From Acidobacteriota bacterium (GTDB lineage Bacteria; Acidobacteriota; UBA6911), in the NCBI GenBank assembly GCA_963664705.1, contig OY761556.1, positions 992,001 to 1,056,000 on the forward strand: DNA of 64,000 nucleotides, given 5' to 3'. Positions 42,918 through 53,249 of this stretch are shown here, piece by piece. Position 1 is the stretch's first letter. Each line of letters starts with the position of its first letter. The position numbers and the translations under genes were made by a program. The notes beneath the pieces were generated by a model that was given only the letters and a program-made list of their open reading frames with translations, did no database searches and was not told the DNA's origin.

Positions 42918-42992
42918 GGGCGGTTAGCTCAGCGGCAGAGCATCGGTCTTACACACCGAGGGTCACAAGTTCAAATCTTGTACCGCCCACCA
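42918..42992 (+). tRNA. tRNA-Val(TAC)
   Basis: Full cloverleaf: GGGCGGT/ACCGCCC, GCTC/GAGC, TCGGT-CTTACAC-ACCGA, ACAAG-TTCAAAT-CTTGT, ACCA end. Confidence 0.97.
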
Positions 42993-44164
42993 CTTACAGC
43001 CGCAGTAGATATAGGTTGCGCGGGGGTTGCGGGTTTAAGCGAAGGCAATCTATTCATTTCCTGGCGATTTGCTCCAGGCACCAAATGTCCATAGATATCG
43101 ACAGTAACCTTGATGCTTGAATGGCCGAGCTGGTCCCTGACGTATGCCAGCGGAGCGCCATTCTGGATTAGTAGGGATGCCGTTGTGTGACGAAGATCGT
43201 GAAAGCGGATCCTCCTGAGTTTGGCAGCTTCAAGGCAATTCCTGAATTCCCGTCTCTCGACATTGTGCATATCGAGCGGGGTTCCTTCGCCGGAAGCGAA
43301 TATCCACTGTGGAAGCTCGTTTCTTCCACCCTTTAGGGCTTCTTCAAGGCGACGGCGGCGGTATGCGCTGAGTTCTTCCAGTAGATCGTCTGACATGTCG
43401 ATGCGGCGGACCTTCCCCGTTTTTGTCTCATAGATCCTGCCTTTCCGGATGCTGCGCCGGACCATAAGGTATTTACCATTCCAATCGATATCACCCCACT
43501 GGAGCCCGGAGATTTCACCAGCACGCATCCCGGTATGAACAGCACAGAGGAAAAGAGGGCAGTATTCCGGATTACCCTTTGCTCTTTTAGAATCCCGTTC
43601 CCTGGACTTGGCCAAGAAGTTTGGGACTTCATCCGCCGTCAATGGCTCGATCTTATCGTGAACAACGCGGGCCTGCTTGAAGTACTTCCCGAGTTTCACG
43701 GCCGGATTGTGCGTGATGATTCCATCGTCAATGGCATGGCTGAGAACGGAACAAAGGCAAGCCACGACGTTCCTAATCGTATGCCTCGCCAAATTCTTTT
43801 TGACTGTCTCCGCAATCAGTTCCTTAACTTTTTCCTTTGTGATGCGGTCCAATGCCAGATCACCAAGCAGCGGCAATATATGATGCTTGAAACACTGGTC
43901 ATATCTTTCCGCCGTTGAATCGCGGACGGCCGTTTTAAGGTACGAATCCTTAAACTTAGTGAAGTAGTTTTGAAGGGTTGGGATGCGCTTTTTTTCTTCT
44001 CGCTTTGGTGGTTGATATAGCTTACACGCAATCTGCCTCTCAAAGTATTCCTGTGCCGCTACTGCCGTCTCATAGCTTCCAGCGCACTTGGCAGCGCGAT
44101 TTCCTTTATAGTTGACGAAAACCCACCATATGCCGGGCTTTCTTTCTCGAATTTTAACTCCCAT
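42971..44164 (-). CDS. int: Tyrosine integrase
   Basis: Catalytic set intact: TGMRAGE, TKTG, FHDLRH, LGHS and DIYGH; adjacent to the att site. Confidence 0.96.
   Translation of the reverse strand: MGVKIRERKPGIWWVFVNYKGNRAAKCAGSYETAVAAQEYFERQIACKLYQPPKREEKKRIPTLQNYFTKFKDSYLKTAVRDSTAERYDQCFKHHILPLLGDLALDRITKEKVKELIAETVKKNLARHTIRNVVACLCSVLSHAIDDGIITHNPAVKLGKYFKQARVVHDKIEPLTADEVPNFLAKSRERDSKRAKGNPEYCPLFLCAVHTGMRAGEISGLQWGDIDWNGKYLMVRRSIRKGRIYETKTGKVRRIDMSDDLLEELSAYRRRRLEEALKGGRNELPQWIFASGEGTPLDMHNVERREFRNCLEAAKLRRIRFHDLRHTTASLLIQNGAPLAYVRDQLGHSSIKVTVDIYGHLVPGANRQEMNRLPSLKPATPAQPISTAAVSGGRYKI
43014..43032 (+). repeat. 19-bp direct repeat, left copy; candidate integrase arm site
   Basis: GGTTGCGCGGGGGTTGCGG, identical at 53103-53121. 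Confidence 0.75.
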
Positions 44165-44165
44165 T

Positions 44166-44903
44166 TTATTTCCTCCTTTTCGTGCCTCCCTTTAACTTCT
44201 CTTCTTGCGCTTTGACCGAGGCGCGGTACTCTGCTTGTTTCTGCTTGAAGTACTCCTTTCCCTGTTTTTTCCCCCATGCGGATACGCGGCAATTTGTAGA
44301 ACAAAATTCCTGCGATGATTTGACCTTCAAAAAAAGAGCGTCACAGTTAGGACAAATCTTTATGGGATCATGTGCGAGTAGATCCGGATTCTCGAAATGC
44401 TCCAGGTAATAAACAAGAGCTTCCGCTACATTCCGCAACTGTGCGGATGAGCGTTCGATTCGCCAGGGCTCACCTTCATTCCTTGGAAATAGAAAACATT
44501 GAAGTACTGGACCGTTAAGACACTTCGTTAGAATTTCCGTTTCTTCTGGAAGCCCCACGAAAGAATAAATAGGACCTTTGAAAATAAACTTTTCTCCACG
44601 TGCCTTAGCATCACGTTTCATCTCTTCAATTTTTTTTATGGTTCTTTCCCTGCCAGTTGGGTTCTCAACGTGTTCTCGAAGAATCCTGTAAAGAGCGTCT
44701 AAGTCTGGGATCTGTGATTTCCCTGTTACTGTCACCACTTTAAGGCGCTTGTCTCTTTTGGAAAATGTTCCATCGCGTGGCCCCACCATTTTGTGTGCCT
44801 CAGGCAAACCATGCTTCTTTCCCAATTCAAGATGGGCCATACCCCGCATTAAATTTGCCGCATCACCTTGCATCAACCGAACTGCAACAGCGAAAAGATT
44901 CAT
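44166..44903 (-). CDS. Hypothetical protein with C-terminal CGNR-like zinc finger
   Basis: CPNC...FCSTNCR followed by a basic tail; AAGGAG RBS; coupled to int. Confidence 0.65.
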   Translation of the reverse strand: MNLFAVAVRLMQGDAANLMRGMAHLELGKKHGLPEAHKMVGPRDGTFSKRDKRLKVVTVTGKSQIPDLDALYRILREHVENPTGRERTIKKIEEMKRDAKARGEKFIFKGPIYSFVGLPEETEILTKCLNGPVLQCFLFPRNEGEPWRIERSSAQLRNVAEALVYYLEHFENPDLLAHDPIKICPNCDALFLKVKSSQEFCSTNCRVSAWGKKQGKEYFKQKQAEYRASVKAQEEKLKGGTKRRK

Positions 44904-44924
44904 GATTTATCTCCTTGAAGTGTC

Positions 44925-45015
44925 AATACGGTATGGGACCGTTATGTGTGTGATACCGTATTTACGTATAAAGTATACATTGCGTATTGCGTTGACGCAA
45001 CGTAAAAAGTACTAT
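44925..45015. promoter_or_regulatory. Divergent control region with operator-like inverted repeats
   Basis: AATACGGTAT-N18-ATACCGTATT (44925-44962); TTGCGT-TG-ACGCAA (44987-45000); TTGCGT-N17-TACTAT promoter-like spacing. Confidence 0.55.
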
Positions 45016-45289
45016 GAGCGTCATGAGCTTGGGGATCGAGCCAGGGTACATAACGAAAAGGCACGCGGAGATCTACAGTGATCTGAAATCTAGATCCCTG
45101 GAAGATGCCATCCGCAAAGGCAAGCTGCGGGCCTTCCGGATCGGGAAAAAGACTCTCATCGAAAAAGCATCCCTAGATGACTACATACACCAGCACGAAA
45201 TAACTCCCAAAGATAAGCAGATGGAAAAAAGCGAGCTTCAAGAGATGCTCACGCGTGCCATCGAGCGTGCAAAGAAGGGCATCGCATGA
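45014..45289 (+). CDS. Excisionase/AlpA-like DNA-binding protein
   Basis: AIRKGKLRAFRIGKKTLIEKASLDDYI winged-HTH pattern; first gene of the rightward operon. Confidence 0.8.
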   Translation: MSVMSLGIEPGYITKRHAEIYSDLKSRSLEDAIRKGKLRAFRIGKKTLIEKASLDDYIHQHEITPKDKQMEKSELQEMLTRAIERAKKGIA

Positions 45290-45834
45290 TAGCCCGCTCC
45301 GAGTTGCCATCCATTTCAAGCATCCTGACCGGATTGGGCATCAATCCTAACCAACACGGCCGGACAAAGTGTCCGATTCACCAGGGCGAAAACAAACAGG
45401 CATTCTCATACAACGATGCAAAAGGTCTTTGGTACTGCTTCCGCTGTGGGTTCGGTGGGGACGCTATCGACCTCGTGAAGCGATCCCTGGACGTGGACTT
45501 TGTGGGCGCTCTGCGATGGCTTGGATTGAGTTCTGATTTTATCAAGGCTCCAGATCCGGCCGTGCTGCGCCAATACAGAATCCGAACAGGGCTCAAGAAT
45601 TGGGCTCATGACTTACAGCGTGAACTTCGGGATCAGTTCTATCACAGATCAAAAATTGAAATGAACGGCAAGCGCCGTCTCTTACGGGACCCAGAGGATT
45701 GCATCGGATGGGAACTTCTGTCCGTGGCATACACCGGGATCCCATTCGATGAGCTGGAACGGCGGCTGGACTTGCTGAACGGGACCGATGAACAGCAACT
45801 GGAGATTTTTAGGCAAATGAGGTCGGCTGAATGA
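45286..45834 (+). CDS. CHC2 zinc-finger protein (DnaG-type zinc-binding domain, no TOPRIM)
   Basis: CPIH...WYCFRCGFGGDAIDLV; only 182 aa. Confidence 0.8.
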   Translation: MIARSELPSISSILTGLGINPNQHGRTKCPIHQGENKQAFSYNDAKGLWYCFRCGFGGDAIDLVKRSLDVDFVGALRWLGLSSDFIKAPDPAVLRQYRIRTGLKNWAHDLQRELRDQFYHRSKIEMNGKRRLLRDPEDCIGWELLSVAYTGIPFDELERRLDLLNGTDEQQLEIFRQMRSAE

Positions 45835-52602: not shown

Positions 52603-52745
52603 GATAGTCTCCTCCAGAGTTGAATTCTAATTTCCTTGATTCGTTAATCAGAAAAGCGTAGAAGAATAGAAACCGCTGAAGCGGGACGCGTACCAGGTGG
52701 TGCTGGCACGGTCCCTGGCCAGCATTTCCTACTTGGAGGAAACAC

Positions 52746-53039
52746 ATGGTTGCGCGAATTCTACCCAAAAGCCTACCTAAATACATTCTGAAAAAAGCGA
52801 ATTCTTTGAACGATGACCGGCTTTCTAAACACGTGGGGAAAGAACCGCACGAGAGACATTTATCGGACGAAGAATTACACGGGATGCTTCAGGATCTTTT
52901 AGATGCTGAGGGCTGGCGTGCATGGAGCGCCGAGTTTAATCTAATCGTCCACCATGATGTATTAGCGAAGGATGTCAAAGAAGCAAAGGATAAGGTGCTG
53001 AAGGTAGTGAAATTCCCGAAACGCAGAAGAAGGAACTGA
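52746..53039 (+). CDS. Hypothetical cargo protein (97 aa)
   Basis: GGAGGA RBS; followed by an intrinsic terminator. Confidence 0.7.
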   Translation: MVARILPKSLPKYILKKANSLNDDRLSKHVGKEPHERHLSDEELHGMLQDLLDAEGWRAWSAEFNLIVHHDVLAKDVKEAKDKVLKVVKFPKRRRRN

Positions 53040-53069
53040 CTGGTATTTGCGTTTTCACCAAAATAAAGG

Positions 53070-53091
53070 GGCTCCTTCGGGAGCCTTTTTT
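53070..53091 (+). terminator. Intrinsic terminator
   Basis: GGCTCC-TTCG-GGAGCC-TTTTTT. Confidence 0.85.
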
Positions 53092-53102
53092 GTTGTGGAA
53101 TT

Positions 53103-53121
53103 GGTTGCGCGGGGGTTGCGG
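53103..53121 (+). repeat. 19-bp direct repeat, right copy; candidate integrase arm site
   Basis: Identical to 43014-43032. Confidence 0.75.
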
Positions 53122-53204
53122 ATTTGCGTTCAAAATGACCCGATAAAGAGTCATCCTGCAATCGCAAATCCGCTAAACTCAATATTCTCAATACCTGTAG
53201 TCAA

Positions 53205-53249
53205 CTTACACACCGGGGGCCATAGGTTCAAATCCTATACCGCCCACCA
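53205..53249 (+). repeat. Right att site: displaced 3' half of tRNA-Val
   Basis: CTTACACACCGGGGGCCATAGGTTCAAATCCTATACCGCCCACCA. Confidence 0.92.

Follow-up and report, generated by a model that had tools for sequence, protein, structure and literature searches.

Can a small capsid-forming element package its own DNA without a separate small terminase (TerS) and without any gene for the neck that joins a phage head to its tail? This question is raised by the element located at 42948-53249 of a stretch of 64,000 nucleotides (the window, to which all coordinates given without a contig or locus name refer) from an Acidobacteriota bacterium (host genome G000), which an earlier note had described as a head-only phage satellite lacking small terminase, head-tail, and tail genes. 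The analysis reported here suggests that the element belongs to a recurrent family in which a TerS is likely to survive as a basic arm on the large terminase (TerL), in which the box next to the putative packaging site switches with the terminase type, and in which neck genes are optional.

An Intact Element Embedding a Reduced Head Module

Judging from its sequence, the element is an intact, tRNA-integrated, capsid-forming element of about 10 kb, presumably mobile, whose att pair can be directly observed. The integration target is tRNA-Val(TAC) (42918-42992, plus strand), the sole Val(TAC) gene of the host genome, whose 3' 45 nt represent attL (42948-42992); comparison of the att repeats placed attR, the displaced tRNA-Val 3' half, at 53205-53249 on the same strand. 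The two sites, spaced by 10,257 bp, share 39 of 45 bases; the first 11 nt, spanning the anticodon loop, are identical, and all six mismatches fall outside this block. Since the attL-type and the attR-type 3' halves each occur exactly in intact tRNA-Val genes of genus relatives (the former in L255, the latter in L265 and L271), the mismatches are allelic rather than the product of decay, and the tRNA half was probably carried in by the element from a related host. Both att ends, the intact open reading frames (ORFs), and the spacing previously read from this DNA are confirmed.

The integrase and a zinc-finger gene are read leftward; they are followed, rightward, by xis, CHC2, and helicase genes, nine iterons, a 61-aa ORF, and the genes for HNH, TerL, capsid, protease, and portal, with a tract of hairpins, a site resembling a terminator, and orf97 lying 3' of the portal. 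Library scans bear out the order and the identities first proposed. The packaging and head module, entirely on the plus strand, includes a packaging-type HNH endonuclease (47210-47617; PF01844, phrog_589/2323), an HK97-type TerL (47621-49231) whose residues 1-27 form a basic, TerS-like N-terminal arm according to library scans, profile comparison, and structure, an HK97-fold major capsid protein of 433 aa (49249-50550; PF05065, TIGR01554), a prohead protease (S78) of 171 aa (50550-51065; PF04586, TIGR01543), and an HK97-family portal of 390 aa (51062-52234; PF04860, TIGR01537) that, when its length is compared with that of relatives, has no C-terminal extension. These genes abut or overlap, as had been noticed: the gaps are 3 nt between HNH and terL and 17 nt between terL and capsid, and the overlaps within capsid-protease-portal are 1 and 4 nt.

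Profiles of TerS, adaptor, and closure proteins, made from relatives, matched none of the 213 six-frame segments of the element, and library scans of its proteins returned no TerS either. Neither library scans nor searches with the tail proteins of a prophage of the same host (see below) detected tail genes in the element, the library scans returned no holin gene, and homologues of those tail proteins were likewise absent from family members. The helical core of the P27-type TerS (TIGR01558, about 110 aa), found in the sister element L012 and in the host prophage, is also absent from the element. Eight candidates were compared with the profiles as possible divergent TerS, adaptor, or closure proteins: orf97, orf61, orf120, orf58, orf51, the zinc-finger protein, the HNH tail, and the portal tail. 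All of them were rejected, with profile probabilities of at most 1.9%.

A Family of Elements Sharing the Reduced Gene Set

The relatives of the element were sought with a TerL alignment comprising 56 of 120 listed homologues and the window's protein, and 80, 80, and 79 loci were fetched from genome, viral, and metagenome collections (in each case the best 80 of more matches), plus two more. A terL gene accompanied by capsid-protease-portal was found in 92 rows including the window, which gave 83 unique relatives once eight duplicates had been removed by hand; Alpha- and Betaproteobacteria, deltaproteobacterial lineages, and Binatia appear in the titles of their records. Among these unique relatives, 45 have a tRNA at one border and a copy of its end at the other (some of these att repeats being only 14-19 bp long); they measure 9,137-11,707 bp (median 10,304), and the tRNAs that they use cover 13 amino acids. 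In 21 of them, TerS, adaptor, and closure are all lacking; five have TerS only, 14 adaptor only, five adaptor and closure, and none all three. The 21 fully reduced elements are spread over many tRNAs and over TerL identities of 43-72%. One neck-less, TerS-less relative, L031, is a circular contig of 10,058 bp containing a tRNA 3' half.

The reduced family is, as far as these comparisons indicate, under purifying selection and not in simple decay. Indeed, the three closest pairs (L031/L032, L028/L134, and L084/L102, where L102 and L134 end at contig edges) give ratios of nonsynonymous to synonymous change (pN/pS) of 0.05-0.22, the exception being the capsid of L031/L032 (0.70); versus the window, synonymous sites are saturated. 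Among the best rows of the INPHARED phages, identity does not exceed 41% for TerL and 33% for the capsid.

The modules are shuffled within the family; usually, replicase-HNH-terL comes first and capsid-protease-portal-xis-int last, separated by a variable stretch that includes a MerR-like gene. The distance from the end of the portal to the start of the integrase is no more than 400 bp in 21 neck-less loci. Many relatives have a MerR-like gene (150-260 aa) upstream of the capsid. These genes were tried as TerS and rejected; we read them as regulators, since they show no terminase match and co-occur with a true TerS in L094. An 88-aa gene of L008 weakly matches the TerS family phrog_57 and matches an excisionase better.

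Some other architectures were met in this survey. Five elements of about 10 kb (L020, L104, L174, L206, and L207) combine an arm-type terL (defined below) with a portal and a protease-capsid fusion of about 570 aa, a second neck-less layout that adjoins tRNA-Leu in L020 and L206. The alphaproteobacterial loci L039, L040, L043, and L047 show the order portal-protease-capsid-adaptor-HNH-arm-type terL, followed by a gene of 865-1,310 aa that in L039 matches tape measure families, so that these elements possibly represent a satellite type with its own tape measure. L099 harbors two capsid-protease-portal modules in opposite orientation (5077-8059 and 11930-14935), each beside a tRNA cluster, and L221 (1216-12826) contains the L136 element in tandem, about 10,030 bp apart, which could reflect a concatemer, a tandem integration, or an assembly effect.

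A TerS-like Arm on the Large Terminase

The terminase genes of the family and its sisters come in two arrangements. In the TerS-type, HNH is followed by a P27-type TerS starting with MGxRGPKPKP and by a TerL of about 510 aa with an HK97-like start; in the arm-type, to which the window belongs, HNH directly precedes a TerL bearing about 30 extra basic N-terminal residues that start with MGxRGPGAKP. The two states exclude each other: among 153 unique TerLs, the arm without an adjacent TerS is seen in 86, an adjacent TerS without the arm in 50, and the combination of the two in none; the other 17 match neither pattern, and in ten of these a variant arm is visible on inspection. The first ten residues of the arm are nearly invariant over 103 TerLs, whereas its length (12-48 aa, median 34) and its remaining sequence vary.

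The arm aligns with the TerS N-terminus over 16 columns (P 1.4e-4; profile probability 53%). A second alignment (P 0.03) gave no support to the idea that it might also contain the C-terminus of TerS. Compared with the HK97 TerL (6Z6D, the only solved structure matched, E 3e-143), the window's TerL aligns from about residue 28, and the AlphaFold model gives a mean pLDDT of 87 for the core and about 50 for the arm, as expected for a flexible segment. In a tree of 52 TerL rows, element-type and phage-type proteins are split with an SH-aLRT support of 99, and the ten TerS-bearing sisters group together with a support of 100. The first tree nested these sisters inside the arm-type; since a tree constrained to unite the 32 arm-type rows had a better likelihood (lnL +31.8; p-AU 0.78, not rejected), no reversion to TerS is claimed, and a single fusion is the simplest reading. 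On the basis of these data, we consider it likely that the arm derives from a TerS reduced to an extension of TerL. As for the earlier view of a missing small terminase, a separate terS gene is absent, but the protein is not simply missing, given the arm and the sister group that keeps its TerS.

Arm-type TerLs without an adjacent TerS also occur in contigs, seen in part, beside a tail terminator and tail genes (L095 and L185), a holin gene (L098), and a tape measure gene (L039); L095, L185, L098, and L096 are phage-like contigs with tail or holin genes.

A Putative Packaging Site That Changes with the Terminase

The 3' part of the HNH gene and the junction with terL (47559-47620, plus strand) contain an A-run box, a CCG core at about 47590, and the AGAGTTAGTTC box (47610-47620) directly before the terL start, a combination conserved upstream of arm-type terL. 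This region is regarded as a putative cos because of where it lies and because it resembles cos sites with 3' overhangs. The motif common to the regions upstream of arm-type terL and of the sisters' terS is roughly AAAATCTC-GCTG-GACCG. Downstream of it, the box switches with the terminase type: a AGTTAGTT-like box about 22 nt after ACCG is found in 70 of 95 arm-type loci (1.7 in shuffles) and in one of eight TerS-type loci, whereas a TTTCGCAGGTT-like box is found in seven of eight TerS-type and one of 95 arm-type loci. The spacing from ACCG to the box is 21-24 nt in 59 of 62 cases, and the window has the arm-type box. A precedent for the recognition of such a box comes from HK97, whose TerS, in the accessible text of the report, binds 15-29 bp downstream of the cut with an N-terminal arm in the minor groove plus a C-terminal arginine (PMC11331095); according to what is available of a second report, the HK97 HNH stimulates cleavage, and TerL with procapsids packages DNA in vitro without TerS (PMC9410871).

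Neck Genes and a Candidate Helper

Neck genes were searched for with iterated adaptor and closure profiles in all ORFs of at least 45 aa on both strands; an additional PHROG scan covered 259 of 657 other plus-strand candidates, picked by codon score. Adaptor and closure are both absent from 40 of the 71 scorable relatives, 21 have the adaptor only, and ten have both; at a TerL identity of at least 60%, 17 of 19 are without either. The 12 unscorable relatives include the adaptor-bearing L005 (68% TerL identity) and L018, which has an adaptor as well. The adaptors belong to two types, occupy four different positions, and are scattered over the portal tree. Because adaptor types and positions vary and most relatives lack them, neck genes behave as accessories on a backbone that is often without them and are, to judge from this distribution, optional in the family. 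The proposal of a reduced satellite class thus stands as regards a recurrent family whose neck-less, TerS-less set recurs among att-bounded relatives, while neck loss is not a fixed trait (31 of 71 have an adaptor). Two further observations concern neck and tail genes: in the neck-less relative L015, a tail-assembly gene (phrog_32; 18185-18826) lies 3' of the portal, and in L072, a Neck1 fragment (17654-17851) lies 3' of the closure gene.

In the host genome, TerS, adaptor, and closure genes are confined to an att-bounded prophage of 58.3 kb (C1:2,539,705-2,598,055; L242-L244), inserted at tRNA-Ser between 60-bp flanking repeats, which encodes a P27-type TerS as well as portal, capsid, Neck1, tail tube, chaperone, a 1,443-aa tape measure, and a 1,240-aa tip protein. 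The adaptor of this prophage, encoded at C1:2,572,302-2,573,225, and that of L005 belong to the same family, with 44% identity over 136 aa, and the L005 portal is about 66% identical to the window's. This complete-looking siphoprophage is a candidate donor of neck and tail, and a similar prophage occurs in G006. It also carries a 1,714-aa RHS-like gene and an adaptor with an inserted domain (phrog_5707).

Other Features of the Locus

The remaining genes of the element complete the picture. On the minus strand lie a tyrosine integrase of 397 aa (42971-44164; PF00589, E 4e-29, phrog_1) and a 245-aa protein with a C-terminal zinc finger (44166-44903), a likely regulator with weak PHROG matches, whose look-alikes in the Atlas are unnamed clusters, the nearest named one being zf-CGNR on 11% of members. 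On the plus strand, an excisionase-like helix-turn-helix protein (45014-45289; PF12728, phrog_66, TIGR01764 below the cut-off) is followed by a CHC2 zinc-finger protein with a primase zinc-binding domain (45286-45834; PF01807, E 3e-9) and a DnaB-like helicase (45831-46811; PF03796, phrog_19). A repeat scan revealed nine GTAAC iterons spaced by 9-11 nt at 46805-46892, out of 11 copies across the whole element, which are likely to represent the replication origin. The 61-aa ORF (orf61; 47035-47220, plus strand) was without likeness to TerS, adaptor, or closure in library scans, codon score, and profile comparison.

The GC-rich hairpin tract (52235-52520, plus strand) was recognised by folding, which is moderately above that of shuffles (z -2.2), and ends with a terminator-like hairpin (52498-52517); it has no Rfam match and no copy among the fetched relatives. 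Of the structured tract and two small genes initially described here, orf97 (52746-53039, plus strand) is well supported as a gene, a piece of cargo from a small unnamed family, with about ten relatives, a positive codon score, and a hairpin after it at 53067-53091, whereas the 120-aa ORF over the tract (orf120) has a non-coding score. No member of the orf97 family was found in any fetched relative locus, and no match in the Atlas. A sigma-70 scan of the element gave fewer sites than in shuffles.

A 26-nt repeat with tandem GGTTGC (D7) at 43011-43036, with a second copy, 92% identical, at 53100-53125, is likely, from its position, to represent integrase arm sites. No attP or attB joint was seen for 40500-56000 in the contigs of three runs and the raw reads of one, which is no test of absence, since contigs drop rare forms; the sole joint listed in the excision check was traced to tRNAs of other organisms, and runs X1/X2 may be the source sample. 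The empty site was not demonstrable, the flanks of 20 relatives being too diverged, and TerL matches were found in two of 29 genus genomes, both distant (30-40%). At 42485-42553, 399 bp upstream of the tRNA-Val gene, there is an 80%-identical copy of the 71 nt at 42882-42952, including the tRNA-Val 5' half, possibly an older insertion remnant or a duplication. The same tRNA-Val site hosts, in a genus relative, a different integrase-bearing element of 10.7 kb without the window's head genes (L279; G025:C230:15679-26401), and the host genome has a second integrase (C1:5691392-5692552) 49% identical to that of the element.

Comparison with Known Systems

The closest known systems are the phage-inducible chromosomal islands that form capsids (cf-PICIs), which, in the accessible part of their description, carry their own capsid, protease, portal, connectors, HNH, TerS, and TerL, with capsid-protease-portal first in Proteobacteria (10.1101/2022.09.08.507074). 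Like the cf-PICIs EcCIEDL933 and KpCIDSM30104, the element combines an integrase on an att-bounded island, a replicase (CHC2 and DnaB-like helicase with iterons), its own HK97-type capsid, protease, and portal, and HNH and TerL for a presumed HNH-type cos packaging, without tail, holin, or other lysis genes; it also shares the capsid-protease-portal order, so that this order, at first regarded as odd in comparison with HK97, is not a peculiarity. As for a regulator (AlpA/MerR/Stl), library scans found the HTH_17/excisionase-like gene and the zinc-finger gene and no AlpA match. In contrast to cf-PICIs, it lacks genes for a separate small terminase, a head-tail adaptor, and a head-tail connector/closure protein, places HNH-terL before the head genes, has the TerS-like arm, and measures about 10.3 kb versus a median of 14 kb; moreover, its relatives, compared by gene content, belong to the bacterial groups named above and not to enterobacteria and Firmicutes. 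The element would, to judge from its gene content, work like a cf-PICI, yet is not a member by three defining genes. Classical PICIs have no portal, whereas the element has one, and the neck, tail, and lysis genes of a complete siphoviral prophage are absent from it. In SatelliteFinder, cfPICIs (types A-C) have 9-11 core genes and a portal is forbidden in the PICI model (PMC10085698, available text); with at most eight of 11 core genes and a portal, the element falls outside both models as described there, while relatives with adaptor and closure could score as cfPICI type B.

With the HK97 terminase system (TerS gp1, TerL gp2, HNH gp74; PDB 6Z6D), the element shares the matching TerL, the HNH partner, and a conserved box downstream of the presumed cut, and differs from it in the absence of a TerS ring and in about 27 extra N-terminal TerL residues; the arm resembles the P27 family of TerS, to which the HK97 TerS is not known to belong. 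Other small capsid-gene elements without tail structural genes are, according to the accessible parts of their descriptions, also distinct: cf-PISP of Vibrio keeps adaptor, closure, and terminases (PMC13230959), EPIPs keep TerS, adaptor, stopper, and tape measure (PMC12822802), portal-less HK97 mini-viruses have no portal and no terminase (PMC13669383), and HE-PICIs sit within helper late genes (PMC10111431). The gene set of the element is not described in the available text of PMC13669383, PMC13230959, PMC1635311, PMC10654092, PMC10111431, and PMC12822802, and neither the family nor an arm-type TerL turned up in searches of the open-access literature. What appears to be new is the TerS-like arm with its matched box switch.

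How the Element May Be Packaged and Spread

We consider it fairly probable that this family of about 10 kb packages its own genome with HNH and an arm-bearing TerL and receives adaptor, closure, and tail from a helper siphophage; of the two parts of this model, neck borrowing seems to us slightly better than an even bet, and for arm-guided packaging the chances are balanced. Int and Xis would excise the 10,257-bp circle, which the CHC2 protein and the helicase would replicate from the iterons. Capsid, protease, and portal would build a small head, whose volume is probably fixed, as the narrow range of element sizes (9.1-11.7 kb) suggests. TerL and HNH would then cut at the conserved site before terL, the arm, probably a remnant of an in-frame loss of the TerS core, reading the AGTTAGTT box, as the mutual exclusion of arm and TerS and the box switch suggest. 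Helper proteins, possibly those of the host's tRNA-Ser prophage, would close and tail the filled head, and the relatives carrying an adaptor or closure gene would supply part of the neck themselves.

Several observations weigh against this model. The likeness between arm and TerS involves about ten residues, and its profile probability of 53% becomes 22% with the window's own arm; arm and box states are co-inherited, so that the counts represent one or two evolutionary events and not independent ones. The box patterns were drawn up by eye once the sequences had been seen; the eight TerS-type rows were chosen out of 15 shown, the seven left out being phages and elements of another gene order. 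The specificity of the HK97 TerS needs its C-terminal arginine (PMC11331095, accessible text), which has no known counterpart in arm-type TerL. As for the helper, the portal of the element is only 32% identical to that of the prophage, and a PF05521 closure gene is absent from four of five host genomes of neck-less relatives, several of them draft assemblies, so that a resident helper is not the rule. In the available description of EcCIEDL933, mutants in single genes of the packaging module, one hypothetical gene excepted, lose transfer despite the presence of helper homologues (10.1101/2022.09.08.507074), and hence borrowing is not a given. Finally, the closest relative fetched (L164/L182, about 84% TerL identity) has a frameshifted terL.

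Different explanations might account for the same gene set. According to the first, the helper's TerS would be borrowed too, beside neck and tail, the arm reading no DNA and being either a docking peptide or a relic of translational context. The P27-type TerS of the host prophage and the variability of the arm past its first ten residues are in agreement with this idea, which we nevertheless regard as unlikely, because the box differs from that of the TerS-bearing sisters, the first ten residues are nearly invariant, and arm-type TerLs occur without an adjacent TerS even in contigs with tail or lysis genes.

The heads might also remain neck-less and tailless, with the capsid as a protective container, and spread by another route, such as the uptake of DNA or particles after their release. 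A portal without a plug should, from work on SPP1 and lambda, leak DNA, and no entry protein is encoded by the element. The presence of an adaptor of one of two types in 31 of 71 relatives, together with some closure genes, a Neck1 fragment, and a tail-assembly gene, points to continued docking on tails. Even though cf-PICIs release DNA-filled tailless capsids without a helper, as stated in the accessible part of 10.1101/2025.02.11.637232, and although 40 of 71 relatives are without neck genes and four of five host genomes without a closure gene, this explanation appears to us as improbable as the preceding one.

Still less credit can be given to the idea that the head module mainly acts as a decoy for helper neck and tail proteins, lowering phage yield and making transfer secondary. 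A portal needing the helper adaptor would be expected to compete for it, but the element keeps HNH, TerL, the cos-like site, and a tight size band, which fits packaging, and EcCIEDL933 leaves helper yield unreduced (10.1101/2022.09.08.507074, available text). That the element is no longer mobile, being a prophage or cf-PICI in decay after the loss of TerS and neck genes, is very improbable and, for the family, largely refuted: some relatives have TerS or neck genes and no excised circle was seen for this copy in the reads and contigs mentioned above, yet no ORF and neither att end is damaged, the reduced set is found again in 21 diverged, att-bounded elements under purifying selection, and the best INPHARED rows are only distantly similar.

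Significance for Satellites and Their Helpers

Self-packaging with a borrowed neck and tail thus remains the model that we favor. In its broadest form, i.e., an undescribed and widespread family with a one-protein cos terminase, in which the TerS ring is gone, a TerS-derived TerL arm reads a new box, and the portal docks on helper neck proteins, it must be regarded as tentative, with chances somewhat below even. To our knowledge, both cos and pac packaging are described as requiring both terminase subunits. If the proposal is true, no other known phage head module that packages itself would be as reduced as this one, and natural TerL-HNH systems with a matched site change would make it testable how specificity arises without a TerS ring.

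In cf-PICIs, tail specificity is set by adaptor and connector, according to the accessible text of 10.1101/2025.02.11.637232. In the family described here, the boundary between satellite and helper would move from neck-tail to portal-neck, and neck genes would represent swappable accessories setting the helper range; the natural series of members with no neck gene, with the adaptor only, and with adaptor and closure would offer a test of the determinants of that range. By published criteria, the neck-less members lie outside satellite detection models, yet they recur in several bacterial classes, cultured hosts included.

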